DNA of 56,966 nt, counting the filler, from Fonticula-like sp. SCN 57-25 (lineage: Eukaryota), in NCBI GenBank assembly GCA_001724245.1. It is 4 parts of 4 records of this genome, joined end to end, with 100 filler letters (N's around TTAATTAATTAA, not from the genome) between each part and the next. Parts side by side here need not be neighbours in the genome. Positions count along the whole stretch, not along the records: positions 43,101 to 56,966 come from MEDX01000180.1; 3 more parts are not named here. One strand, written 5' to 3'. Positions 43,101-56,966 of this stretch are shown here, one piece after another. The notes beneath the pieces were generated by a model. That model was not told the DNA's origin. It saw only the letters and a list, made by a program, of their open reading frames with translations, and did not search any database. A program made the translations under genes and the position numbers. Each line of letters begins with the position of its first letter. Positions within the stretch are counted from its first letter, which is position 1.

Positions 43101-44083
43101 GTGTCTTCCGAGGATCACTTCCGACGTGAACGCGAAGCGAGCGAAGGATACAACGACGAAGATGATGATGACGTCGGATCCCTAGCAGAGTCCTTCGATA
43201 GAGTTTCTGTCAGAAACATCAGTCAAGTCAAGAAGAATATATTGGACCGCTTTGGAGTGATAGATAGAGTCAAGATACGACGCACCATAGGACTGGGTAT
43301 CACTGCCGACATTGACTGCCACAAGAGCGTTCTATTCAAAAACAAAGTGTCACTCTCATCGCTATTTGCATTGGGATTGAGTATTTCAGACATTGCAGCC
43401 CTGTGGGATATCAAGAGTCGAGACGACGTGATTAATCTCTCTTTCAAACCATTCGACTTGCTGACCAGAGACCTGTTTCCTTCTTCCCTGGCAAAGACTC
43501 TCTATCAAATTGACTACGGATGGTTAAAGACCGCATACCATGTCAAGCCATCCTTCTTCGCTCACGAGGCGTTTGGTGCGGGAGATTTGATTCACTACGA
43601 CTTTCCTATAAAAGAATACCTGAGCAACTCTATGGCGTCGCAAGGAATGCCCCTGAACAAATCTACTTTCCTTCAATTCAACGTCACTTACAAGGAATGG
43701 CTAGACTACTTTAACGTTCCCAAATCCCTGTTCAAGGAGTTGAGAATCACCAACTTGGACGCAATCTTGCACAAGTGGGGCAAAGAATCGTTAGTAGATC
43801 TGAAGGGAGAAATAGCGTTGGTTAAATACATCGAAGTAGAGAACGACCAAGGAAGAATCGTCAAGACTTACTATTGGGACTACGAAGAGTACCCGGACAT
43901 TGAATACGTACCTCGGCCCCNNNNNNNNNNNNNNNNNNNNNNNNNNNNNNNNNNNNNNNNNNNNNNNNCCGTAATGCTAATACGGCGACCGCTACCAACG
44001 ATAATAACACCAACAACTCAAGCGCTTCGAAAGAGAAGGACTTGAGTTTGAAAGACTTGATAAGGTTCGCTAATAAAAAGTAA
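43101..44083 (+). CDS. Hypothetical viral protein (5' truncated; spans an internal N gap at 43921-43968)
   Basis: Open frame from the contig start to the gap. After the gap the frame RNANTATATNDNNTNNSSASKEKDLSLKDLIRFANKK* (stop 44081-44083, AATAAA at 44072) is the more plausible C-terminus. Confidence 0.7.
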
Positions 44084-44179
44084 AGTGGAGGAAGAGGATT
44101 GTATTTTTTGTAATAATGTATATGCGCGCTCTCTTCGTACGTAACGTAATAAAAAAATATTGTTAAAAAGAGTAATCTC

Positions 44180-44188
44180 GCTTACCGA
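44180..44188 (-). promoter_or_regulatory. Putative spliceosomal 5' splice donor TCG|GTAAGC (phase 0) ending the terminase exon
   Basis: Minus strand reads AAG GGT GGA TCG|GTAAGC GAGATTACTCTTTTTAACAATATTTTTT; abrupt shift to non-coding composition. Confidence 0.65.
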
Positions 44189-44896
44189 TCCACCCTTGAG
44201 GATATTGGGTGATGAGAACATTGTATTTTCTGTTCCATAATGACCTTTGACCACCAAGAATTGATCGTTTGATTCCAGTATTTTGCAGTTGATTGTGCCA
44301 TCTTTTAATATCTTCTCGATGAACAACTCCGTCCCCTTCAAGACTTCGTGTCCAACTTTTCCACTGACGTTAAATACGTTGACTTGCCAATCGCGCTGAG
44401 TAGACATCATGATACTTTGAGTGTACATTTGTAGGTAAGTTTTGCCAAAACGACGTCCCATCATAAACGCGAGCACGTCCCAATGATCCACCAGTCCATA
44501 CTTTCTCGATAGGTAAGCTTCGTGGGTAATCAATTCGAATCCTAGAATGCCCTTCGCAAAGGCTTGTATGAGTGATTTAAAGCAGTCGTATTGCTGAGGA
44601 CTTAGTTTGATGTCGTTCTTTGCCAAAATCTTTTGCGCTTCGAATATCATGAGGAACTCTTTTAGTTTCTCGGATTTGCTTCCACCGGTAGTTCTATTCG
44701 ATTCTTGATAATACTCGTGCTTCATGTGCAGGCCCCGACTCTCGTCTTGTTTCATGTGCTCTTCAAATTGCTTCTCGGCCTTTTTGCTAATATAACAACT
44801 CCACAGGGGAGTGGCCACGCGCACTCGTATACCGGCCACTTTTTTGACCATGAGGTAACGAAACTTTGTATTGTCGATGCCAGGATTTTTCGCCAT
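44186..44896 (-). CDS. DNA-packaging terminase ATPase, N-terminal exon (herpes UL15/mirusvirus-like)
   Basis: LSPQQ (adenine-binding Q), VLAFMMGRRFGKTY (terminase Walker A; cf. herpes PRRHGKT), then a helix/strand pattern up to ENTMFSSPN. Walker B and nuclease domain are absent; the frame runs into a GTAAGC donor and AT-rich sequence. Confidence 0.8.
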
Positions 44897-45094
44897 GTTT
44901 GGCAAAAATGTTCAAGTCGAGGGCTCTGTTATGCCAGTTTATCTATACTCCAAACCGACGACGGCAAATATTAGGCCCGGTGGACTAAAAAAAATTAATT
45001 TTCTTTTTTGAATTCGGAAGGGTGCAATCTGTTACCCACGATCACTTCGACAACCACCAAACTTACTCGTTTCTCGATTCGTTTTTTTCCCCTC

Positions 45095-48000
45095 ATGGAG
45101 AATAACGCTTTGGAAGTAGGGGATGGGAGAACCTCCTCTTTTGTCAGTTTGGAAACGTTCATAACCGACCCCGAAGATGACACGTACTACCTGTTGGCGT
45201 TCTTCGTACCCGACAAGAGGAGTGGCATCGTACCGGGGTTCGTTCCTTACGACAAACAAACGGTGGACACCTTCGACGGCAAAACCATGACGGGTCTCTT
45301 TTACGGACCGTTTTGGCTCGACGTGAGGAGGTCCAAGGCCGCCCTCGGAGATTTGCGTAGAAGATTGATCGACGCTCCGAAACACATTTATCGCGGTAGT
45401 TTCTCTCGCTACATTAACTACGACAATTCCAAAGAGTTTGGCGAGTCGAACTTTAACATTTACGGTCCGTTGGGACGAATATCGCAAGAACCGGGAGTCA
45501 AGATTGCAAAAGGATTGGATTTTAACCTCGAGGAGACCGAAGACGTTCAAAGAAGTTTGTTGAACCAATTCTTGGACATCGTCATGGTGGTCAAAGAGCG
45601 CGATGCCGACGCCGATGCAATATACGCCACTCTACGCGGCCAAGTGGAAGCACAAGAAGACGGTGATAAACCGTTACTCTTTGCCTACATACCCGTCAAA
45701 CAAGTCAAGATTAACTTTCCCGATCTGTACCTGGGCAAGTGGAGGTCGCTTCAGCAAAAGAAAGACAACTACCTGACGGTAGAGTACAAACCAGATCAAG
45801 TGTTGGCAGCAAAAAAGGTTGGACCTGTCGTGAGCTTCATGAACGTGTTAGAAGAACCCCCCAACGTGTCAGAACAACCGTTGAAAGAATTATTGAAAAA
45901 GATTGATTGGAACACACTCCCTCGAGACGATAATCCGGAGGGTGAAGAAGCCGTGGCCGCGCTCGCCAATTACGTAGAAGCCTCGCAACTCAACCGTAAA
46001 TTCGAAAACTACATTACCAACCAAGAAGACACCATCAAGCGGTACAAGACGTACCAGGAGTCGATTCAACCCGCAAGCGACGCACGCAGAGATTACGCCA
46101 AAGCGTTCGCAAACCTCGGTATCGACGACGCTCTGAGGAATCGGTTGGTAGAAGCCATTTCAGCCGCTGACGCACGCGAACACGAACTCGCACGTCGCGT
46201 AGCCATGGACGAGAAGAAGTTTGAAGAGAAACTGCAAGTTACCATCGACTTGTACGAAGATCAATTGAGAACCGCCAAAGAAGCATTCGAAGAGAACCAA
46301 ACCAAGATGAAACTCCTCGAAGAAAAGGCCAAGAATTACGAGGACAAGTACGTCGATCTCAAAGGTCGCTACGCGAATAACAAACGTGAGCTGGACGAAA
46401 ATTATCAGAGGAGCAAGCGTGAACTCGAAAACAAGTTTAAAAAGGAGCTGTTGGACAAGGAATCTTCCCAAAGACAATCTTACCAACTCCAGTTGAACGA
46501 GCTAGAGAGGGTGTACAACGAAAGACTCGAAAGGATCACCCAAGAATCCAAGGCACTCGTGGAGGACATGAACCTCCAGAGAAACACCGTCCTAGAGATG
46601 ATGGAATCTACCCAATCGGACATAAACGACGTGACTAGGAAATTGGAAGAAACGCTCGAAGAACTCGAACGACAAAAGTCGGTCAAAGACTCTGAAATAG
46701 AAGAAGCAGTAAAGAGGATTGTCGAAGAGCGTGACGAATTGGTCGAAGAGCACGAATCTCTCGTGAGGATGCTCGAAAAACAAATCGAACAATTGACTAT
46801 GGAACGAGACGAAGTCGCCGAGGCTCACGACGAATTAGAGGACAAAATCAACATGATAAAGAGTGGCGTCTACACGGAAATCAAGCGTTATCACGATTTT
46901 ATAGGTGACCTCAAACAATCCATCGAGAATGAACGCCAAAAGAACGCTGCCATCACAAAGGATCTTTCTCAGGCGCGTCAAAGACAAGATGCATCCAGAG
47001 CCGAAGCAAAGTACTTTATCGAGAGGTATAACGACACCAAGAAAGAGTTGAAAGAGGTCAGAGACACGCTGATAAAATACATTGCATTGCAAGACGTCAA
47101 GTCGAGAGAGGCTTCCATCGCCACGTCCGATTACAGGGGCATCGCAAAGAGATTGGAAGTGGCAAACGATCGCATCAAAATACTGGAAAATATCGACAAG
47201 GACCAGCGCATCGAACTCGATAGTTTGAGAGAAGAGAAGCAACGATTATTGGACGGCATGAGAAAGGCCGCGAGACAGGTGGCAGACACCGACCTGGAAT
47301 TGAAAGAACTGAGAACAGAGTACGAAGAACTCGAGAGAGCTAACGCTGGTCTCCAGACGAAGATTAGAGATCTCGCGATTCACAACAAGGGCTACGCCGA
47401 CACGCTCAAGAGATTGAAAGTGGAGAATGCTGGACTCAAACAATCCAAAGAAGATTTGGCCGTTCGATTGATAGCCCTCCAGAATGCACCTCGCCCTCAG
47501 ACGGTGGACGTCGATGCAATCAAGGCACCGCTCCAAAATACCATCGAAGAACTCGAGGACGCCCTGCAAGATCGCAAAGACAAGCTAACGCGAATGGCAA
47601 AGCTTTACGACGATAATCAAAAAAGGCTCGAATTGGCGACGAACCAGATTGCTTCGTTGGAGGACACACGCAGGGGTTTGGAACACACTATTGAAAAGCT
47701 AATGGTCCAAGCCAACAATGGTGGCTATTTGCACGCCATCACGTCCATTTCACGCAAAGCCACACACGATAAAAAATTCAAAACCTCCGTGGACAAATGG
47801 CCTGCGTTGGCTGCCAAAAAGGAGACGATCACGGGTTTCTTCAAGTTTAGCAGTTCGCAACTGGAAATGGACGATTTTGTCAACCCGAAGAAACGAACGT
47901 ACACTACGGGCACCATTTACCAAGAGATCAATCTGGTCGACCTTCCGCCGTCTATAGCGAGCGACGAAGATAACCTCGAAGTGTACGACGACTCTCGCTA

Positions 48001-48394
48001 CCTGAGACAAATGCTCGACTACCTACACAAACCCCAGTACAAGTTGTGCATTCCCATTTGGACGGAAGGTGGCGTATTGCAACCGCGTCGTTACGTGAAG
48101 GTCACCGACCACGAGGGTGATCTCGTCAGCTCACCTCACATAGAAGCCGATGGCACCATTTTTGTACACGTCCCCGAGTTTGGCGATCTCAAGGCTATCA
48201 TCAACTACGACGCTAGACGACAAGTCGACAAACTTCCCGACAATTCTTCGACATGGATCATCAGCAAAATTCAAAAGATAACATCGGACGCACCAGAAGA
48301 ATTGAGCACTATTGCCACACTCATGGTAAAAATGTACAAATATGCCGGAAGTGATTCTTTAAAGGTCGAAAGGATGATACTATGTCTGTGTTAA
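45095..48394 (+). CDS. Large viral protein (~1100 aa) with a long central coiled coil and globular ends
   Basis: Uninterrupted ORF; E/K/L-rich heptads over roughly aa 300-870; no Walker A, so not an SMC. Confidence 0.8.
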   Translation: MENNALEVGDGRTSSFVSLETFITDPEDDTYYLLAFFVPDKRSGIVPGFVPYDKQTVDTFDGKTMTGLFYGPFWLDVRRSKAALGDLRRRLIDAPKHIYRGSFSRYINYDNSKEFGESNFNIYGPLGRISQEPGVKIAKGLDFNLEETEDVQRSLLNQFLDIVMVVKERDADADAIYATLRGQVEAQEDGDKPLLFAYIPVKQVKINFPDLYLGKWRSLQQKKDNYLTVEYKPDQVLAAKKVGPVVSFMNVLEEPPNVSEQPLKELLKKIDWNTLPRDDNPEGEEAVAALANYVEASQLNRKFENYITNQEDTIKRYKTYQESIQPASDARRDYAKAFANLGIDDALRNRLVEAISAADAREHELARRVAMDEKKFEEKLQVTIDLYEDQLRTAKEAFEENQTKMKLLEEKAKNYEDKYVDLKGRYANNKRELDENYQRSKRELENKFKKELLDKESSQRQSYQLQLNELERVYNERLERITQESKALVEDMNLQRNTVLEMMESTQSDINDVTRKLEETLEELERQKSVKDSEIEEAVKRIVEERDELVEEHESLVRMLEKQIEQLTMERDEVAEAHDELEDKINMIKSGVYTEIKRYHDFIGDLKQSIENERQKNAAITKDLSQARQRQDASRAEAKYFIERYNDTKKELKEVRDTLIKYIALQDVKSREASIATSDYRGIAKRLEVANDRIKILENIDKDQRIELDSLREEKQRLLDGMRKAARQVADTDLELKELRTEYEELERANAGLQTKIRDLAIHNKGYADTLKRLKVENAGLKQSKEDLAVRLIALQNAPRPQTVDVDAIKAPLQNTIEELEDALQDRKDKLTRMAKLYDDNQKRLELATNQIASLEDTRRGLEHTIEKLMVQANNGGYLHAITSISRKATHDKKFKTSVDKWPALAAKKETITGFFKFSSSQLEMDDFVNPKKRTYTTGTIYQEINLVDLPPSIASDEDNLEVYDDSRYLRQMLDYLHKPQYKLCIPIWTEGGVLQPRRYVKVTDHEGDLVSSPHIEADGTIFVHVPEFGDLKAIINYDARRQVDKLPDNSSTWIISKIQKITSDAPEELSTIATLMVKMYKYAGSDSLKVERMILCLC

Positions 48395-48398
48395 TAAA
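48393..48398 (+). terminator. AATAAA polyadenylation signal overlapping the stop codon
   Basis: TAATAAA followed by a T-tract. Stop-overlapping AATAAA also occurs at 50575, 51162, 56618 and on the minus strand at ~56646-56651. Confidence 0.6.
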
Positions 48399-48554
48399 GG
48401 TAATTTTTTTAAAGCGGATTTTTTGAAGAGATGACCTTCCAAAATGAAAAAAGAAGTACGTTGACCAAAAAAGGTTTTTTTTTCTCCCCCATACACACAA
48501 ACCTCTCTCTCTTTCCGTGCAAGCTTGACCAGCGAATCCGGTCACGCCGTTAGA

Positions 48555-50576
48555 ATGGAGAAAAACAGCGTACAACGAGTGGGTCGTAAAAACAACGATA
48601 AGCCGAGCCCCTATCAACACGACGAAAGCGACGAGCAAGGCGATGACGAAAAGCACCACCATCATCACAGCAGTGACACTGACAGCAGTGACACCGAGAG
48701 CGATCACTCAGAATCGGAGAAAGAGGCCAAGAGAGAGAAAAGAAGACGACGCTGCAAAAAGGTCCTGGGTTGGATGAAGAACAACAAAGTCCTCCTCCTT
48801 TTCGGTCTCATGCTACTCATCCTCATCGGTCTGGGTGTGGGTGCATACTACATTATCAGCGAAGTGTTGAGTTACGCACTCTTATTGACCGATTGCAGCA
48901 TTTATGCTAACAGTACGACGGTCCCTCAAAAATGCCCCAACGGTCGAGAATTCTGGGCTAGTTTGTGCCACCTTCCCTGTCCACCCGGATTCTATCACAC
49001 CGCCTCGTGCACGTGCACCAAGGGAGCCATCGTCACGGACTGCGAAAAATACGGTGTTTCCACGGGACCACCCATGATTTGTAAACCCTTCAACGGAAAA
49101 GCCAGGGAATACTACGCCGGAGGTTGTTACGACGCGTGTGACCCCGGCACTCAAAGATCCGCAGCATGCACGTGCGTCAGTGGCACGACCATCACCAACT
49201 GCACCCGATTCGGAGCCGTCGGCATACCGAGAGACTGTGGTTCGAGAGAACTATACGGCACCTCTTGCCTCACGCCGTGCCCGTCCGGATACACTCGCGC
49301 GGACATTTGTGCGTGCTACAGGGGATCCGTCGTGACCGACTGCGGAAAATACGGCTCTTCGGACCTTCCCAACGTTTGCCCTAGCTACAAGGAGTACTAC
49401 GGTTTGGGATGCTTCAACAAGTGCCCCAGCGGTTACTCACGAACTGCAGCCTGCACGTGTCAAAGAGGTTCTACCACCATCAACTGTATCAACTATGGTA
49501 TTCGATCGCCCTTGCGTTGCCCTCCCGGAAAAGTGTACGCCGGAGGACTTTGTTACGACCCTTGTCCAAACGGCGGCACTAGAACTGCCGTGTGCACGTG
49601 TCAATGGGATGGACTCATCAAGCCTTCTCCCAAGCTCGGAGATTGTTTGCCCGGAACCTATGACATTGCCAGTCTCTGCTATACACAAAATGGCCCTCTC
49701 ACCAGTTGCTATCATTTTGGTTCGAGCGTCAGCCTTCCCTCCGTGTGCAATCCAGACGAAGAACTCTACGCCAGTGCTTGCTACGCAAAGTGTCCCAGCG
49801 GACAACCCAGATCTTCTGCATGCGGTTGCGGCAAGGTCGATGTGATAACCAACTGTTTCCTTTACGGAAATGCCACTTACACGGGACCCGAGGGACCCAA
49901 ATGTGCCGCCGGTTCCGAATACTTTGGTGGTATTTGCTACAAAAGCCCTTGCCCGTCCGGACAGCCTAGAACGGCTTCCTGCACTTGCGACAACCTGCAA
50001 CGATTGCAAGATTGCTCTTTGTACTCGAACGCGGCTAGCGTCGGTTTCCCCGGAGGACCTGCGTGCGGACCCAACGAAGAATACTACGCGGGACTATGCT
50101 ACAGCAAATGCCCTCCCGATCTCCCCAGAACTGCGGCTTGCACGTGCGACAGTTTCAAGATTGTCACCGATTGCAGCCGTTACGGAAACGGAATTATTCC
50201 CGGCTTCCCCGGTGGACCAGAGTGCAAAGAAGGTGAAGATTTACACGGTGGTGTCTGCTACAAGGCTGCGTGTCCATCTCACCAGAACAGAACGGCCGCG
50301 TGCACTTGCGACGACTACAAGACGGAAACAAATTGCAAAGATTTTGGTGACGGTAGAAGTTTGCTCGATCCGGAACGATTGGGTCCTCAATGCGAGGATG
50401 ACGAAGATTACATGCTCGGTTTGTGTTACAGAACGAAATGCCCGGAGGGTTACACTCGCTCAGCCGCTTGCACGTGCCAAAGAAACGAAGAACCCGACAC
50501 CACTGCGATACTCAAAATTATGTACGAGTATGTCTTTGGTGGAGGGTCACAGACCATTACTTCACTAGTGCTGTAA
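48555..50576 (+). CDS. Type II membrane protein with 10 six-cysteine repeats (paralogue A)
   Basis: His/acidic/basic cytosolic tail, TM VLLLFGLMLLILIGLGVGAYYII, repeats TDC..YG...P..C...E.YxG.CY..CP.G..RTAACTC, N-glycosylation sequons (NST, NCT, NAT, NRT). Confidence 0.85.
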   Translation: MEKNSVQRVGRKNNDKPSPYQHDESDEQGDDEKHHHHHSSDTDSSDTESDHSESEKEAKREKRRRRCKKVLGWMKNNKVLLLFGLMLLILIGLGVGAYYIISEVLSYALLLTDCSIYANSTTVPQKCPNGREFWASLCHLPCPPGFYHTASCTCTKGAIVTDCEKYGVSTGPPMICKPFNGKAREYYAGGCYDACDPGTQRSAACTCVSGTTITNCTRFGAVGIPRDCGSRELYGTSCLTPCPSGYTRADICACYRGSVVTDCGKYGSSDLPNVCPSYKEYYGLGCFNKCPSGYSRTAACTCQRGSTTINCINYGIRSPLRCPPGKVYAGGLCYDPCPNGGTRTAVCTCQWDGLIKPSPKLGDCLPGTYDIASLCYTQNGPLTSCYHFGSSVSLPSVCNPDEELYASACYAKCPSGQPRSSACGCGKVDVITNCFLYGNATYTGPEGPKCAAGSEYFGGICYKSPCPSGQPRTASCTCDNLQRLQDCSLYSNAASVGFPGGPACGPNEEYYAGLCYSKCPPDLPRTAACTCDSFKIVTDCSRYGNGIIPGFPGGPECKEGEDLHGGVCYKAACPSHQNRTAACTCDDYKTETNCKDFGDGRSLLDPERLGPQCEDDEDYMLGLCYRTKCPEGYTRSAACTCQRNEEPDTTAILKIMYEYVFGGGSQTITSLVL

Positions 50577-50668
50577 TAAATCTTTTTTTGAATGCTAACC
50601 ACTACATTTGCAACGCGTTCTTTTATTATCAACAAACAAAAAGAACCTCAATTTGTATTCAGAAAGAA

Positions 50669-51163
50669 ATGGGCAAAAGTCATTACGGCACTCATTTTTC
50701 TTATCTCGCTTTGGCGGTCGTTGCGTACTACGCCTACGACTACTACACGTGGAGCGTACAAATTCCCCACCCTCCCGTGATTTGTGGCTACGGTACAGAA
50801 TTTTACAAAGGAGATTGTCTTCAACGTTGCCCCGATACTTTTAAGAGAAGTGGCCCTTGCAACTGTACTCGACTCACTATCGAAACCAATTGTGAGGCAT
50901 ACGGTGTGCGACAACAACCCAAAGACGGTGGATGTCCAGAAGGAATGGAATTGTTTGCCGACATGTGTGGACCCAAATGTCCAGGTGATATGATCAGAGA
51001 GGCCCCGTGCACGTGCACGAGAGTGGAGAAATTGGACAGTTGTGAAATGTACGGCCAACAAAAAGGGCTTATCAGACACACGCCTCAATGTGGTGCAAAG
51101 GAGTACATGTCGGATAAACGCTTGTGCTTCAAAAAGTACATGCCTTTTGGCGTGGAGATCTAA
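50669..51163 (+). CDS. Short membrane-anchored Cys-repeat protein (paralogue B, ~2.5 repeats)
   Basis: Hydrophobic FSYLALAVVAYYAY, then C......GDC...CP..FKRSGPCNC..TNC..YG..C...CGPKCP...REAPCTC. Confidence 0.8.
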   Translation: MGKSHYGTHFSYLALAVVAYYAYDYYTWSVQIPHPPVICGYGTEFYKGDCLQRCPDTFKRSGPCNCTRLTIETNCEAYGVRQQPKDGGCPEGMELFADMCGPKCPGDMIREAPCTCTRVEKLDSCEMYGQQKGLIRHTPQCGAKEYMSDKRLCFKKYMPFGVEI

Positions 51164-51296
51164 TAAACTTTTTTTTTAATCAACTCTGTTTGATGCCATT
51201 TTTTTTTGATTTTCCGTTCAGCAATATTGCACACTTTTTGTAAATATTTACAAGCGCTTCGCGTCGGTACGAAAAGGAGAAAGGTATCCGCACACC

Positions 51297-54245
51297 ATGA
51301 GCGAACTTTCGCTTTTGAAGCCCCTTTTTTCCTTCAAGTCGACGGATGCAAAGGACCCCAATCGAAAGAATAAGAACAAGGGAAACAACTCTTCTTTCCA
51401 TCACGAAAGTCACACCCAAAATGGTAGTACCCACAACCATCAACACGTACACGTCGGTAAAGACATACACATAAACTCTGGACACGGAGGTGGACACGCT
51501 CACGGTGGCAAGAGCAAGAGCAAGGGTATGGGAAAGAGCAAGAGCAAGTCCAAATATGGAGGCAGAAGAGATAACATGGACGGTGACGACGGCTACAACA
51601 ACAGCAACAATTACAATAACTACGATCCCAACAACCCCAATAACCAACAACAACAAAACCCAGCATGCTCTCCTTGCACCAGATATATGCTTATTGCCAT
51701 GATCATCATGATCGTATTAGGTGTGGCAATCATCCTCATTTTCTACGGTATCAAAGCCGCGTGGCTCGACAAAGGAGCTCTAGAAAATTGTGCGCGTTAC
51801 AACCGTCTCGGCAGCGGTTTGCTACCCATAGACTGTTCGAGAGGGCAGCGGCAGTACTTTGCCAGTACTTGTCTGTTGTCTTGTCCCGATGGTTATAATC
51901 ACACGGCAACGTGTACGTGCGAAAGGGGATCGACGGATACAGATTGTACCAAATGGGGTACATCTTCCGCCCCGGACGTGTGCCCACCAGGAAGAGATTT
52001 GTACGGATCCAGGTGCTACACCGGATGTCCTCAAGGAACCACGAGAACTGCCATGTGCACTTGTCAATCGGGGAGCATCAAAACCGATTGCAACCAATTT
52101 AACGTGGCGAGTTCTACCCCAAAGAAGTGCCCCAACGGAAGAGAGTTCATCGACGGTCTGTGCTACAAACCTTGCCCCGTGGGTTCGAAGAGAACCGCAT
52201 CGTGCACTTGCGAGACCGGCTCGCTGGATTACAACTGCGACGTTTACAACCAAGAGAGTTACATCCCCTCCAAATGCCCCAGCGGAAAGGACTACTACGG
52301 ACTCACGTGCGTTCTCGCGTGCCCTGCGGGTTACAACAGAACCGCAGCTTGCACTTGCGAGTACGGTACCAGCGTCACCGAATGCAGTGCTTTCGGTATG
52401 CAACAGTCGTATGCTTGTCCTACCTCAAAACAAGAATCCGGTGGTTTGTGCTACACCCCTTGCCCTTACAACGGAAAGAGAACCGCCGCTTGCACGTGCT
52501 ACTACGGAGATAGCCAATGGACGACCACAACCCCCAGCACAACGTGCGACTCCGCATGGAAGTACTTTGACGGTGGCGCACAATGTTTCTATCCCTGCGG
52601 TATGGTCAGCTCTCCATCGCAGTTGAACGGTGGCGCCTCGGTTCAAGCGACCGTTCAATGTTCTGCAACTTCCGGTTACCCAGTTCAGGGTAGCGATTCG
52701 CTCTGCTGGCAAAACTACTGCCCCAACGGCGGTAGCAGAGGAGGCCCATGGACGTGCACTTACGGTGGCGTCGAGCAATCTATCCCAGCAACTTGGGGAT
52801 GCCCTTCCAACACTATTCCCACTTGCGGTCAACCTTCAAACTGTCAAGAACCCAACGGAGTCGTTATATCTTACACGGACAAGTGCGCTACGTGGAGCAC
52901 AAACTCGCGTGGTGTGTACTCGTGGTACCTGGCAGTTGGTATCGGTTTGCCCTGCCCCTCTGGTATGGTTCGTGGAGTGGACGAAAAATCGGGATGCTAT
53001 TCCCCGTGCCCAGTCTTTGGTGGTGTCTCCGGAGTGCGCTTGGATCAACAAAGATGTCGATACGGTAGTAATACCGGTATTGCACCTTACTATCAGGCCA
53101 CCAAACAATGCCCTTGGGACTACCCGATCAATCCTCCTTACACAGCTCAGTCGGGATTCAATTTTGGATGCTACAAGTACTCGGGACCTCTCACGTTCAT
53201 CGGATACAACGATTTCAACGGCGGTTCTTCAATCGCAGGAACTCTTTTGTGCCCTTCCGATAAGCCTTACCGCGTCCTCACTACATGCTACACCAACGGT
53301 TGCCCTACGAATCCTGAAGGAAAACCGGGTACGCGAGAGGGCCCCGTCACGTGTTCGTGGAATTGCAACAAGTCTCCCAATCCCATCGCACCCACCTACA
53401 ACTGTCCCGGAAATTATCCTATTCTCTACGATGGCCTCTGCCATACTGTAGAGGGTACTCAAACCAGCTGCATTGCCATGAACGGTGGTGTGGGTACGCT
53501 TCCAGACTCTTGTCCTGCCGGTATGGAAGACTACGCGTCCGCATGCTACGGAAAATGCGCACCGGGTACATCGCGAGCTGGAGCGTGCACGTGTCAAAAC
53601 AAGGATTACATTACCGATTGCACTCTATTCGGACAACCATCGGACTCTCCCGTCTGCGACGAGCAATCCGACAACTTTGGTGGTATTTGCTACAAGAACA
53701 AGTGCCCACCCGGAAAGAAGAGAACGGGAGCTTGCACGTGCGACGACAGGGCGCTCATAACCGATTGCGCCAAGTTTGCCGACGCGAGAGGACCCGACGA
53801 CCCCGAAGGACCCAAGTGCGAAGACGACGAGGACTACTTTGGAGGATTTTGCTACAAGCCCAAGTGCCCACCGGGTTCGAAGAGAACGGGTGCTTGCACG
53901 TGCGACGATTTGAAGGTCGACACCAACTGTACGCTGTACGGCGACTACAAGGATATTGGAGACCCTCTGGGACCAAAATGCAGTGGAAGCAAAGACCTCT
54001 GGGGTCTCGTGTGTTACGATCAAGCTTGCCCGAACAACAAGGCGCGAACTGCCTCTTGTACGTGCGACAATTACTCTGTTTTGACGGATTGCGACAAGTA
54101 CGGCGATCCAAAGATGATCGGAGATACCGCCGGCTTGGGACCTCAATGTTTGCCCGGTTACGATTGGGTCGGTGGACTTTGTTATACCGAACCTTGTCCT
54201 CCTGGTTACACGAGAAGAGATATATGCGCATGCGTAAAAGATTAA
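51297..54245 (+). CDS. Type II membrane protein with 5+5 six-cysteine repeats and a ~290-aa central insert (paralogue C)
   Basis: His/Gly/Lys/Asn-rich tail, TM YMLIAMIIMIVLGVAIILIFYGI, the same repeat as paralogue A, and a divergent G/S/aromatic-rich middle. Confidence 0.85.
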   Translation: MSELSLLKPLFSFKSTDAKDPNRKNKNKGNNSSFHHESHTQNGSTHNHQHVHVGKDIHINSGHGGGHAHGGKSKSKGMGKSKSKSKYGGRRDNMDGDDGYNNSNNYNNYDPNNPNNQQQQNPACSPCTRYMLIAMIIMIVLGVAIILIFYGIKAAWLDKGALENCARYNRLGSGLLPIDCSRGQRQYFASTCLLSCPDGYNHTATCTCERGSTDTDCTKWGTSSAPDVCPPGRDLYGSRCYTGCPQGTTRTAMCTCQSGSIKTDCNQFNVASSTPKKCPNGREFIDGLCYKPCPVGSKRTASCTCETGSLDYNCDVYNQESYIPSKCPSGKDYYGLTCVLACPAGYNRTAACTCEYGTSVTECSAFGMQQSYACPTSKQESGGLCYTPCPYNGKRTAACTCYYGDSQWTTTTPSTTCDSAWKYFDGGAQCFYPCGMVSSPSQLNGGASVQATVQCSATSGYPVQGSDSLCWQNYCPNGGSRGGPWTCTYGGVEQSIPATWGCPSNTIPTCGQPSNCQEPNGVVISYTDKCATWSTNSRGVYSWYLAVGIGLPCPSGMVRGVDEKSGCYSPCPVFGGVSGVRLDQQRCRYGSNTGIAPYYQATKQCPWDYPINPPYTAQSGFNFGCYKYSGPLTFIGYNDFNGGSSIAGTLLCPSDKPYRVLTTCYTNGCPTNPEGKPGTREGPVTCSWNCNKSPNPIAPTYNCPGNYPILYDGLCHTVEGTQTSCIAMNGGVGTLPDSCPAGMEDYASACYGKCAPGTSRAGACTCQNKDYITDCTLFGQPSDSPVCDEQSDNFGGICYKNKCPPGKKRTGACTCDDRALITDCAKFADARGPDDPEGPKCEDDEDYFGGFCYKPKCPPGSKRTGACTCDDLKVDTNCTLYGDYKDIGDPLGPKCSGSKDLWGLVCYDQACPNNKARTASCTCDNYSVLTDCDKYGDPKMIGDTAGLGPQCLPGYDWVGGLCYTEPCPPGYTRRDICACVKD

Positions 54246-54407
54246 TCTGCGCCACAAACGAAAAAAAAAACACCCCCCATCTGTAATATTTTTTTTTACT
54301 TCCTATCGTCAATGGAATAAATCACTTTTTTTTGTAATGTAGTCAAAATTCGAGACCCTCTTTCGCGTGATCGTAACAAACACGGTCTAATTTACCAAAC
54401 CCATACC

Positions 54408-54902
54408 ATGAAGAAGATTATCGTAACCTTATTACTCGCCATCGTGGCGTTAGCCGCGTGCGAAGAACTCGTACAAACCCAAGAATTGCCAGACCAATCT
54501 GACTATATGGATCCCGATAACATGTGGATCTATTGGAGAGATGGCATCGAAATTGATAGAACCGGCATTGTCAGAGACTGCGATTTATATGGCAAGACCG
54601 CCAATCGTCCTTCTGTTTGCCCCCAAGGAAGAGAGCTTTTCCAAGAGTGGTGCGTGATCAAGTGTCCCGCTACATTTACTAGAATTGCTCCTTGTGCTTG
54701 CAGATCCCCCAGCGGTGAATTATTCGACGATTGTGCCACTTACGGAGACGCACGTGCCATCGGCATGCCCGACGGTCCCATTTGCAAAGAGACCGAAGAC
54801 GAGTTTACCGGATTCTGTCACTCTCCCAAGTGCGAAGAAAATCAAATCCGTTTCGATGGATGCTCGTGCGCTCGTTACAGACGGGTTAAGAAGATTGAAT
54901 AG
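54408..54902 (+). CDS. Secreted Cys-repeat protein (paralogue D, 2 repeats)
   Basis: Signal peptide MKKIIVTLLLAIVALAAC; RDCDLYG..PSVCPQGRELF..WC..KCP..FTRIAPCAC and DDCATYG..GPIC....FTGFC.SPKC....RFDGCSC. Confidence 0.82.
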   Translation: MKKIIVTLLLAIVALAACEELVQTQELPDQSDYMDPDNMWIYWRDGIEIDRTGIVRDCDLYGKTANRPSVCPQGRELFQEWCVIKCPATFTRIAPCACRSPSGELFDDCATYGDARAIGMPDGPICKETEDEFTGFCHSPKCEENQIRFDGCSCARYRRVKKIE

Positions 54903-55083
54903 AAGAAGTGCTTCCATTTTTGGACATTTTCCGAAGTTCGTAAAATAAAAAACGTTTTTAATTTTTTCCCCCAAAAAACTTTATTTTCGGGTATTCTAGC
55001 CGGCCGAAAACATTTAAATTCGAGTTTTCGGCACTTGACGGTTCATTCCAAAATTTCTCCACAACGCAACAGCACAAAAGAAC

Positions 55084-55956
55084 ATGACAACGATGACCAC
55101 CACTAGAGCAACCACCTCCGAGATTGACTACAGACTCTGCAGGAATTCGGTCGAACACGAAAGCAAACGCCCCGAAGGTGATCCCAAGAAGCACTCCGAC
55201 GTGTACAACCGCATAAGACTATGCAAAGACTATTACAAGGGCTACTTGGAAAACTTGTTCATGAGCGGCCACAATATGGTGTGGAACGGCATGTTCGACT
55301 ACAGTCAAAAGGAGTTATTGGAAGAGATTTTGCCCCAATTACCCAAGGCCATTTCGACACAGGACGCCGACGCACAACGCGACGGCTACGTTTACAGCGA
55401 AGATAGCGATGAAGATGAATCGGAATCGGAATCGTCTTCTCAAATCAATTCCAATATCGAGTCCTATATCATGGAGGCGCTCCGACGCATTCCCTTGAGA
55501 ACCCACTCTCATCGCAACAGCAAGCAGTCTCTCATAGATAAATACATACCAATTCTCCCCCTCGAAAAGGCCATGCAAAGTGCAGAGCGCGACATGGCCT
55601 ACGAATCCATGACGATTGCAGATGACACCAACAAAGTCGGTGGCTACTTGCGCGTCTCCGTTTACAACAACGTCAAGGCCAGAATTGGTGTCAAGGATCC
55701 CTTCAATAACTTGTGCATAACATCGGGAACGCCGATTCCTTATTGCGTGGCCGTCGAATCTGCCATCGAAAACCCACACGCCGGTGAATTCGATAATTGC
55801 GACGACACCATATACCACGTTATTTTCATGGACGAATCGTTCAACAGGATAGTGCGCATCCGTGCCGAGGAACCTCAAGATTGTAATTCCTTTGAAGGAG
55901 TCGAACTCGATGGAGACTCGAACGACAATGACAATTCAGAGCCCATGGACGAATAA
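55084..55956 (+). CDS. Hypothetical viral protein (290 aa)
   Basis: Uninterrupted ATG ORF with coding-like composition, flanked by AT-rich spacers; no recognisable motif. Confidence 0.7.
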   Translation: MTTMTTTRATTSEIDYRLCRNSVEHESKRPEGDPKKHSDVYNRIRLCKDYYKGYLENLFMSGHNMVWNGMFDYSQKELLEEILPQLPKAISTQDADAQRDGYVYSEDSDEDESESESSSQINSNIESYIMEALRRIPLRTHSHRNSKQSLIDKYIPILPLEKAMQSAERDMAYESMTIADDTNKVGGYLRVSVYNNVKARIGVKDPFNNLCITSGTPIPYCVAVESAIENPHAGEFDNCDDTIYHVIFMDESFNRIVRIRAEEPQDCNSFEGVELDGDSNDNDNSEPMDE

Positions 55957-56034
55957 TAACCATTCATTTTTTTTAATAATTCTATGCACTTTTTTAAATG
56001 TCACGCTTCATCACCAATAAACCAAACGATTATC

Positions 56035-56622
56035 ATGGATTACTCTTCGGATTACGTGACGCCCGTTCACATTGTCAATTTGGCGATCAGCGTCGCTGCG
56101 GGTTACGTGTCTTTGGTTCTATCGCAAAAGATTATAGAAGAGTACCCCGGTAACATTATACTGGGGTTAATATGGCCCGGAATCACTTTGATATGGTTCT
56201 TCGTGGACAGGTTCTTCAAAACGAACATCATTTCGAAGATTAAGAACAGAGTGTGGAAAAACTTGTGGCACTGCTTGCTCAACTTTGTGACTATCAACTT
56301 GGTGATCATTTCGTTCAATTACTGGCTCGATATTGTCAAGAGACTGTACGGGTTGACAGCCATTCCACCTTACAACCTTTTTGTGATCGTGGTGATAGGA
56401 ATCACGTTTTTATTTTACATTTTCCAAGGAGCTTACATGAAGAAGCGCAAGGACATTGTATGCATCAAGAGAGTGTTGGAAATGGTGCTCTACCACAATT
56501 GTGCCATTAACCTATCCAATACGGACAAAGCAACCCTTTGTCTCAACGAGATAAACGAAGAACTGAGAAGTTACAAACGAGAGGAAAACAAATCGCAAGG
56601 TGTACACAAGAGAAAGAAATAA
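56035..56622 (+). CDS. Hypothetical viral multi-pass membrane protein (~4 TM)
   Basis: Four hydrophobic segments (IVNLAISVAAGYVSLVL, IILGLIWPGITLIWFFV, LLNFVTINLVIISFNYWL, LFVIVVIGITFLFYIF) and a basic C-tail. Confidence 0.72.
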   Translation: MDYSSDYVTPVHIVNLAISVAAGYVSLVLSQKIIEEYPGNIILGLIWPGITLIWFFVDRFFKTNIISKIKNRVWKNLWHCLLNFVTINLVIISFNYWLDIVKRLYGLTAIPPYNLFVIVVIGITFLFYIFQGAYMKKRKDIVCIKRVLEMVLYHNCAINLSNTDKATLCLNEINEELRSYKREENKSQGVHKRKK

Positions 56623-56646
56623 AAAAGGGAGGGATTCGACACTCTT

Positions 56647-56966
56647 TTATTTTGTCACAAATTTGACGGTTGCTCTACAAATAATACACTTGATGCCTTC
56701 GGGTTTTATCTCCACGGGGGAGCTCGAAACGTACGCATTGGCACACCATAAACACCCTACTGGATGGTTGCACTTGTCCGTGTAAATGGTCAGTGGTCTT
56801 TCCGAACACATGGTGCACGTGTCCCTTTCTTTATCGTCGGTAATTTCGAAAATGGGTAATATGCCATATTTCTCTGCCATTTTGAGCCTCTTGTTGTTGC
56901 GCTCCACTTCTTGTTCTGGTGAAATGTCTGGGATCCGGCGGGTGTATTGCTGCTCAATCTGCTGTA
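56647..56966 (-). CDS. C-terminal C3HC4 RING-finger protein (putative E3 ligase; 5' truncated)
   Basis: CTMC...KCNHPVGCLWC...KCIICRATV; the frame is open to the window edge. Confidence 0.82.
   Translation of the reverse strand, partial: QQIEQQYTRRIPDISPEQEVERNNKRLKMAEKYGILPIFEITDDKERDTCTMCSERPLTIYTDKCNHPVGCLWCANAYVSSSPVEIKPEGIKCIICRATVKFVTK

Follow-up and report, generated by a model that had tools for sequence, protein, structure and literature searches.

We investigated four adjacent genes, here called A, B, C and D, that lie at positions 48555-54902 of a 56,966-nucleotide stretch of DNA (the window, filler included) from the Fonticula-like sp. SCN 57-25 assembly GCA_001724245.1 and that encode proteins built from a repeated six-cysteine unit. 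The pattern in which cysteines have been lost among the relatives of these proteins indicates, with strong confidence, that the long proteins fold back on themselves as hairpins whose opposing strands are joined by actual cross-strand disulfides. On the wider proposal that A and C are mirusvirus-like type II surface stalks that serve in attachment, we judge the evidence for and against to be evenly balanced.

Four adjacent genes share a six-cysteine repeat

Genes A-D are all on the + strand and intron-free, and their products share a unit of the pattern C-x10-18-C-x9-14-C-x3-4-C-x9-C-x-C, whose cysteines we number Cys1 to Cys6. The four proteins contain 23 complete units (A 10, B 1, C 10, D 2), compared with a mean of 0.06 and a maximum of 1 in 1000 shuffles of the same proteins, and the pattern does not occur in the six frames of window positions 1-43000. 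When the 23 units were aligned, all six cysteines were invariant and one arginine nearly so. The original prediction, made from the DNA alone, had described four co-oriented genes with a six-cysteine repeat of about 48 amino acids (aa) in three formats, and the genes and their repeat were borne out. The unit length held for the N-terminal arm (47-53 aa) but fell short of the C-terminal arm (mostly 53-56 aa), where long Gly-Pro-x-Cys units are concentrated.

Hydropathy over 19 residues reached 2.8 in A and 3.3 in C at an internal segment, both strong values, and neither protein has a signal peptide. At the N-terminus, D scored 2.5, which is signal-peptide-like, and B only 0.72. The type II membrane (A, C) and secreted (D) formats thus stood, but the proposed small anchored format became doubtful, B having a weak anchor. 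Sequence prediction also placed four N-x-S/T sites downstream of the anchor in A and five in C, so that A and C are both predicted to join an anchor to an extracellular, glycosylatable and disulfide-rich part, the combination sought in a viral envelope attachment protein. What the original prediction missed is the organizing principle of the long proteins, in which five units, an insert and five further units are arranged for nested pairing.

Cysteine co-loss favors pairing of first unit with last

In the long proteins, the order of five units, an insert and five units was found in 8 of 8 that were aligned, with 8-residue spacers nearly everywhere else. The insert measures 35 aa in A, 9-37 in the A orthologues, 217 in the C-like relative P0003 and 323 in C. 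Tandem repeats are normally taken as beads on a string. We compared three models for the partners of Cys1 and Cys5, which could lie within the same unit (self), in the next unit (neighbour), or in units i and n+1-i (nested), and took cysteines that are lost together to be disulfide partners. The remaining cysteines gave a local picture, in that Cys2-Cys3 occurs alone as a hairpin at the tip of A and the end of B, and Cys6 was lost together with Cys4 (p 8e-6) and not with the next Cys1 (p 1).

Across 35 proteins and 141 pairs, the nested model gave no mismatch, compared with 40 for the neighbour model and 38 for the self model. The first set of 22 proteins, whose sites were curated by hand because an automatic site parser missed degenerate units, contributed 66 pairs (nested 0, neighbour 26, self 20); all four full-length orthologues of ten units that a later search brought up, with sites taken from alignment columns, contributed 40 (0, 6 and 12); and nine more later matches contributed 35 (0, 8 and 6). 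In the eight-unit protein P0005 the corresponding mismatches were 0, 4 and 4. These counts leave out most proteins with all cysteines present, proteins that could not be parsed, and P0009, P0019, P0169, P0171 and P0174. Individual losses illustrate the pattern: P0153 lacks Cys5 in unit 2 and Cys1 in unit 9, and P0155 lacks Cys1 in units 3 and 4 together with Cys5 in units 8 and 7. Under random loss, the joint chance of the three Cys1 matches is about 2e-5 when they are treated as independent. P0152 has lost the same two sites as P0009 plus their nested partners on the other arm. In total, 18 proteins discriminate nested from neighbour pairing, and all 18 favor nested. The ectodomain cysteine count was even in all six proteins counted (A, B, C, D, P0002 and P0003).

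A conventional beads-on-a-string arrangement, a TNFR- or furin-like ladder with each unit closing on itself or its neighbour, is therefore extremely improbable given the mismatches that either version incurs, and it would also leave the equal arms unexplained. It draws on a weak hairpin likeness to TNFR cysteine-rich domains (Z 2.0-2.2) and to R-spondin (E 0.64), on 8-residue spacers that could form tight turns, on the compatibility of P0152 and P0009 with neighbour pairing, and on the eukaryote-like P0118 and P0079, which look like plain tandem copies. An initial reading in which Cys5 pairs with Cys1 of the next unit (47 pairs with both, 5 with neither, 2 discordant) was dropped because those cases cannot separate neighbour from nested pairing and the longer proteins contradict neighbour pairing.

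Several points temper our confidence in the nested hairpin. Most counted pairs keep both cysteines and are uninformative, with 34 pairs lost on both sides, and neighbour pairing accounts just as well for P0152 and the fragment P0009. We chose the first 22 proteins by eye from 150 matches and placed their sites with the hypothesis known, and some of them are related to one another (28-40% identity). Under each of the three models, a cysteine also counted as Cys1 when it lay up to 3 residues downstream. An AlphaFold2 model of the A ectodomain (4 rows) had a predicted local distance difference test score (pLDDT) of 41.8 and a predicted template modelling score (pTM) of 0.18, uninformative either way, and no disulfide or cross-arm contact is seen directly in any model.

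A further group of proteins (P0021, P0027, P0031, P0035, P0095, P0124, P0159, P0160 and P0162), mostly signal-anchored and giant-virus-like, has one nested rung in mid-chain that carries a self-closing mini-unit, with related two-hairpin repeats on both flanks. This suggests that the wider two-hairpin repeat family also folds back.

Proposed architecture and function of A and C

We propose that a large, most likely mirusvirus-like DNA virus of some microbial eukaryote encodes A and C as surface glycoproteins with type II topology; their predicted disulfides and N-glycosylation sites imply passage through the secretory pathway. Each unit would form two local disulfide-stapled beta-hairpins (Cys2-Cys3 and Cys4-Cys6), and the chain would fold back so that unit 1 lies with unit 10, unit 2 with unit 9, and onward. 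Two antiparallel units would make a rung, held by two cross-strand disulfides that run from Cys5 to the partner's Cys1 in both directions. Five such rungs would stack into a stiff two-stranded stalk with both chain ends at the membrane and the variable insert at the far tip; at an assumed 4-6 nm per rung the stalk would be 20-30 nm long. By the same scheme D would be one soluble rung, and B, at about one and a half rungs, a minimal anchored form. New rungs and heads would nest at the turn and leave the rest of the stalk unbroken. A hydrophobic C-terminal tail of 13-39 aa is present in 4 of 4 A orthologues, and C-type proteins end within 3-6 residues (3 of 3); the tail of A may touch the membrane beside the anchor.

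The stalks would project from the envelope of the virion or from the surface of the infected cell, and we lean slightly toward the virion. There they would offer the tip, and possibly also the faces of the rungs, to surface glycans or proteins of the host, with C carrying a large recognition head and A possibly acting as a partner or multivalent binder. For this attachment role, as read from the protein sequences, the prospects are about equal in either direction. One observation speaks against a binding tip: P0155 has a 9-residue turn and no tip, and the tip is thus not the essential binding part in A-type proteins. A role of D as a decoy and assembly of A-D into a complex are both unsupported.

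The same fold-back could instead serve a different purpose, with the rung itself as a binding module for glycan, cell wall or membrane, A and C as multivalent arrays, and D as a soluble binder that coats, cross-links or competes. We consider this improbable on balance, yet the strongest competitor on present evidence. It would account for D and its three orthologues, in which one rung is the whole secreted protein, for the tipless P0155, and for the fusion of the unit with tachylectin, WSC, ricin-type, tectonin-like and metallophosphoesterase parts and its insertion in a Zn phospholipase C, such fusion sites being the usual place of targeting modules. A unit beside lectin domains may nonetheless be a mere spacer, the conserved aromatic residues and arginine are explicable as packing, and the fold searches showed no resemblance to lectin or chitin-binding domains (Atlas TM 0.31 to a CBM14 cluster).

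A purely structural role, in which A-D build an envelope or outer-coat lattice or remodel the infected-cell surface without a specific receptor, is unlikely. The adjacency of the four formats, the probable A, C and D orthologues in one record set and the conserved unit order (both described below) would fit such a role, but the even cysteine counts and nested co-loss leave no free cysteine for inter-chain links, and the large variable head of C is better suited to recognition. We regard as very unlikely the suggestion that C, or A with C, is an entry or fusion protein whose hydrophobic hairpin tip enters the host membrane. The most interface-seeking 11-mer of the C ectodomain (aa 541-551; Wimley-White -4.8) does lie near the middle of the head, at the predicted apex, but the segment is not conserved in P0003 or P0152, type II topology and cross-strand disulfides along the stalk leave little room for refolding, and no fusion-protein fold was matched in the searches, which used the D model.

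If the nested hairpin is correct, paired cysteine loss yields a testable disulfide map, and the family has a natural stalk whose tip is open to insertions (9-323 residues). The links that the nested model predicts are Cys114-639, 152-594, 163-583, 205-540, 216-529, 252-487, 263-476, 300-434, 311-423 and 347-385 across the arms of A, and Cys58-152, 96-109, 71-82, 86-98, 126-137 and 142-154 in D.

Origin of the contig

The window consists of four contigs joined by spacer. The first three carry genes like those of an intron-bearing eukaryote, are higher in GC and are unrelated to the last, on which A-D sit (window 43101-56966; 13,866 bases; MEDX01000180.1). GC content is 0.479 on this contig and 0.555-0.576 in the other pieces, and GC at third codon positions (GC3) is 0.556 in the four repeat genes compared with 0.751 in four host-like open reading frames (ORFs). 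Two runs of another study each yield a single contig (32.8 and 36.2 kb) that covers 43101-56932 at about 99% identity, extends 16-19 kb further left and has no indel within the four genes, so the gene order and frames of A-D are no assembly artefact. Together, the separate contig, the GC and GC3 contrast and the spanning strain contigs show that the cluster is real and comes from a genome other than that of the host contigs; the virus-like origin first proposed is upheld to the extent that the contig is foreign to the window's other pieces. At least half of the sampled contig words occur in each of 11 public DNA runs from four studies, and two of these runs may be the source; those with labels are bioreactor or wastewater metagenomes. 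No RNA run was among the public sequencing runs holding contig words. Three other runs diverge at 56932 with an identical, different continuation, and the last 34 bases (56933-56966) may be an assembly artefact.

The contig is very likely of viral origin, and the virus probably mirusvirus-like. It is densely packed with intron-free genes, and AATAAA occurs at their stops or beyond them, some stop codons merging into the signal. A terminase-ATPase-like first exon ends at a GTAAG donor past the P-loop region; its language-model features matched unnamed and terminase clusters at 0.92-0.94, and the exon is the chief indication of a herpes-like (mirusvirus-type) origin. In the 99% strain this ORF carries three indels, all of them past the donor, consistent with an intron at this site. 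The repeat cluster lies 3.7 kb from the terminase-like ORF, with one 1099-aa gene between. The contig resembles Mirusviricota of the Okeanovirales/Styxvirales type, with their split terminase (PMC12768974), in what looks like a terminase ATPase half ending at a spliceosomal donor and in a C3HC4 RING gene; the same paper describes mirusvirus terminases as mostly split and RING proteins as a mirusvirus core function. An envelope-like layer gained in the cytoplasm is reported for a cultured mirusvirus in PMC12606086, which names how particles acquire the envelope and exit cells as an open task. The words 'cysteine', 'envelope', 'glycoprotein' and 'membrane' do not occur in the main text of PMC12768974. 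A-D are concrete candidates for mirusvirus envelope proteins, and their expression and assay would be feasible without virus culture.

Other results tell against a mirusvirus-like source. Unlike Mirusviricota, the A-D contig has no gene for an HK97 major capsid protein, a portal or a triplex, and no virus hallmark was detected on it at profile level. The terminase-like exon obtained no profile or alignment score in Pfam, PHROGs or PDB sequences, and scans of IMG/VR with the terminase exon, the C return arm, the A alignment, P0046 and P0003 found no locus on a viral contig. No longer homologue of the exon was present among 1052 candidates, and searches of the assembly with PF02499, PF02500 and PF03237 gave no match (controls were silent for the first two) and did not find a second terminase half. 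As DNA, the cluster was seen beside the terminase-like ORF only in the same virus and the 99% strain, and a metagenome scan returned one contig only, from the same virus (5 differences in 2263 bases).

A piece of cellular genome swept into the bin, with A-D as cell surface proteins, would agree with the lack of a profile-level hallmark and with the occurrence of the repeat in cells. We think this quite unlikely in light of the gene-dense, intron-free layout, AATAAA at the stops and the terminase-like exon with its donor site, and because D and the C outbound arm had no match on any other contig of the 9.5-Mb assembly.

Relatives of the repeat unit

A profile of the 23 units matched 519 of 1.84 billion representatives at E<=0.001. 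Among the best 150 matches, 48 have a complete six-cysteine unit and many others share the two-hairpin core only; a hydrophobic segment precedes the first unit in 52 of 61 unit-bearing proteins. P0002, P0153, P0154 and P0155 are probable orthologues of A (45-59% identity), with unit order kept between A and P0002 (9 of 10 best matches in register). P0003 and P0152 are C orthologue-like, with fragments P0009 and P0019, and P0032, P0040 and P0046 are D orthologue-like (32-47%). No clear orthologue of B was found. P0155 (A), P0003 (C) and P0046 (D) share one Joint Genome Institute (JGI) record set (9 contigs, the largest of 152,619 bp), so that a single distant relative may well encode probable orthologues of all three.

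The unit is not confined to viruses of this group, as judged by sequence matches, and the idea of a dedicated viral module did not survive: two Kaumoebavirus proteins (P0044 and P0167) carry it, as do bacterial secreted proteins. The database searches foreseen in the original prediction returned no Pfam family and 519 relatives, some of them outside viruses. Secreted bacteria-like proteins join the unit with tachylectin (P0011, P0014, P0161), WSC (P0041), ricin-type or metallophosphoesterase parts; ricin-type (P0044) and tectonin-like (P0100) assignments fell below the cut-off. In a bacterial Zn-phospholipase-C-like family, two units form a block within the N-terminal segment (E 2e-25 to PDB 2fgn, the match beginning at chain residue 11), and both units are complete in 2 of 58 genome loci (Bryobacterales, uncultured Acidobacteria). 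In Zn phospholipase C, Trp1 and His14 bind zinc. Both ends of a block placed within this segment must be close together, and nesting at the turn would explain why an enzyme loop can accommodate a rung. The unit also offers a starting point for several hundred proteins that lack annotation (519 representatives, many through the hairpin core only).

Two further observations concern the bacterial proteins. P0014, P0028, P0034, P0041 and P0161 are secreted and bacteria-like, with an N-terminal rung, a long helical middle in which hydrophobic segments occur, and a C-terminal part that varies (tachylectin, WSC or beta-trefoil-like), and form an uncharacterized modular family. At loci L015 and L020, a gene beside the phospholipase C gene carries a related GVGPxCW-type repeat.

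Family and fold searches

Neither A-D nor 11 long homologues had a significant match in Pfam, PHROGs, NCBIfam or PDB sequences, the best E of the PDB profile search being a non-significant 0.38-0.64. In Pfam, no TNFR family matched A-D at E<=1 or the 11 homologues at E<=0.1, no furin-like or EGF family matched either set, and the repeat had no match among phage and plasmid records. We found no published account of the repeat in the full-text literature, a source that largely excludes subscription papers; supplements of the two mirusvirus papers cited above may list the genes as unannotated clusters.

AlphaFold2 modelled mature D (18 rows) as one compact two-unit domain (pLDDT 86.6; pTM 0.70) with short strands and a one-turn helix at each Cys1. 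Foldseek searches with this model gave a best E of 1.2 against the PDB (TNFR E 1.4) and of 0.017, with TM 0.23, against BFVD. With VIA-align, 3 of 48,161 chains reached Z>=2 and none Z 5, and 3 of 387 did so in a second search (best Z 2.2). The best rows were mostly TNFR domains (Z 2.0-2.2; root-mean-square deviation 2.0-3.5 A; 34-39 residues), from which we conclude only that two hairpins are a common kind of element. Atlas neighbours of D were clusters of Nucleocytoviricota, Oomycota and Verrucomicrobiota, all of them unnamed (features 0.81-0.88; TM 0.55-0.58). The expectation that the repeat would differ from EGF, TNFR, furin-like and chitin-binding repeats is thus consistent with the lack of a curated-family or solved-structure match, and modelling of D, as had been suggested, gave a confident structure with no clear fold match. 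A weak fold match is no proof of a new fold.

Features and neighbouring genes

Table 1. Features of the A-D contig, in window coordinates, and of a bacterial family with the unit, in coordinates of its own loci.
Feature	Coordinates	Strand	Description
Gene A	48555-50576	+	673 aa; predicted type II membrane protein with, in order, a charged inner tail (78 aa), the anchor, units 1-5, a short tip, units 6-10 and a hydrophobic tail at the C-terminus
A transmembrane anchor	48789..48857	+	~aa 79-101 by hydropathy; basic cluster just before
A outbound arm, units 1-5	48894..49601	+	aa 114-349; short-linker type; 8-residue spacers
A tip	49602..49706	+	aa 350-384 (35 aa); single lone two-Cys hairpin
A return arm, units 6-10	49707..50477	+	aa 385-641; units 7-10 of long Gly-Pro-x-Cys type
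A C-terminal tail	50478..50573	+	contains hydrophobic residues
Gene B	50669-51163	+	164 aa, 14 Cys; weak N-terminal anchor or signal; Cys2-Cys6 partial unit, one full unit, Cys1-Cys3 partial unit; start taken as the ATG after the A stop and AATAAA (a longer ORF from 50438 overlaps A in another frame)
Gene C	51297-54245	+	982 aa; predicted type II membrane protein with, in order, an inner tail of low complexity (130 aa), the anchor, units 1-5, the head (323 aa) and units 6-10
C transmembrane anchor	51687..51749	+	~aa 131-151 by hydropathy
C outbound arm, units 1-5	51789..52499	+	aa 165-401
C head	52500..53468	+	aa 402-724; degenerate hairpins with 24 Cys between them; may be the binding tip
C return arm, units 6-10	53469..54233	+	aa 725-979
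Gene D	54408-54902	+	164 aa; starts like a signal peptide, followed by a single rung of two units (aa 58-154: one short-type unit, one Gly-Pro-type unit)
Terminase-ATPase-like first exon	44186..44896	-	ends at GTAAG donor (44185), past P-loop region
Zn-phospholipase-C-like family	L015:3001-4179, L016:1715-2899		P0026, P0039, P0043, P0049, P0052, P0084

Just upstream of A, the 1099-aa gene (45095-48394, +) has a long, charged, coiled-coil-like middle and no significant family match in Pfam or PHROGs; it could be a tegument- or scaffold-like partner. An open frame of more than 250 aa (43101-43900, +) enters from the left end of the contig, opposite the terminase-like gene and inside its predicted intron, and had no Pfam match for the part tested. 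D is followed by a 290-aa orphan (55084-55956, +), a multi-pass membrane protein with a weak MFS-like score (55984-56622, +), for which a strain indel at 56031 suggests the second ATG as start, and a C3HC4 RING protein at the contig end (56647-56880, -).

Comparison with known repeats and stalks

TNFR cysteine-rich domains close within themselves and differ from the A-D unit in cysteine spacing. They are likewise built of disulfide-stapled beta-hairpins in elongated extracellular proteins (HVEM, CD40 and cytomegalovirus UL144; 6nyp_E, 7msj_A, 8yx9_K, 4rsu_D), but A-D have no TNFR match in Pfam, the structural match spans about one unit's two hairpins at a chance-level Z, and co-loss suggests that Cys1 and Cys5 here pair across arms. 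A furin-like repeat has eight cysteines and opens with a four-cysteine knot, which is absent from the A-D unit. Two successive hairpin modules are common to both, and the segment C-x10-C-x3-C-P-x-G aligns with R-spondin-1 residues 79-100 (R-spondin Fu, PDB 4qxf; E 0.64, not significant). A-D nevertheless have no furin-like Pfam match and six cysteines per period, the TDC-x-x-YG segment and the R-x3-C-x-C end have no counterpart, and the furin-like fold was not among the D-model rows at Z>=2. EGF domains have a terminal C-x-C-x8-C that closes within the domain, in contrast to a unit whose Cys6 is co-lost with Cys4 and not with the next Cys1; neither EGF or laminin-EGF nor CBM14 (peritrophin-A) families were matched in Pfam.

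The nearest kin is an unnamed repeat of the C-Y-x-x-C-x-x-G-Y-x-G-V-G-P-x-C-W type, found in giant viruses and in oomycete-like and bacterial proteins, which shares the two-hairpin core but lacks the Cys1/Cys5 cross-strand pair, and for which no Pfam model was found either. It occurs in 39 of 176 stored proteins, two of which have both repeat types, and is a relative of the A-D unit, not an explanation of it. A far-reaching combined proposal would make A-D the first recognizable envelope attachment apparatus of a mirusvirus lineage, assembled in one spike as a 'Russian-doll' hairpin of nested rungs with exchangeable tips, on a mobile targeting scaffold common to nucleocytoviruses and bacteria, with the commoner GVGPxCW-type repeats, found on either side of the same tip in other giant-virus-like proteins, also forming fold-back stalks; that all of this should hold together seems to us doubtful.

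Out-and-back stalks are known from the stalk-and-knob of the bovine ultralong antibody CDR H3, the phage T4 gp37 needle and the antiparallel arms of SMC/Rad50, to none of which A-D showed a sequence or fold match in the general searches. In each the chain leaves and returns, with both ends at the base and a functional apex, as proposed here for A and C. To our knowledge, none of them uses a repeated domain whose copies are disulfide-paired first with last. Attachment at a surface is a familiar kind of job; what would be new is the proposed protein architecture, the pairing of first unit with last.

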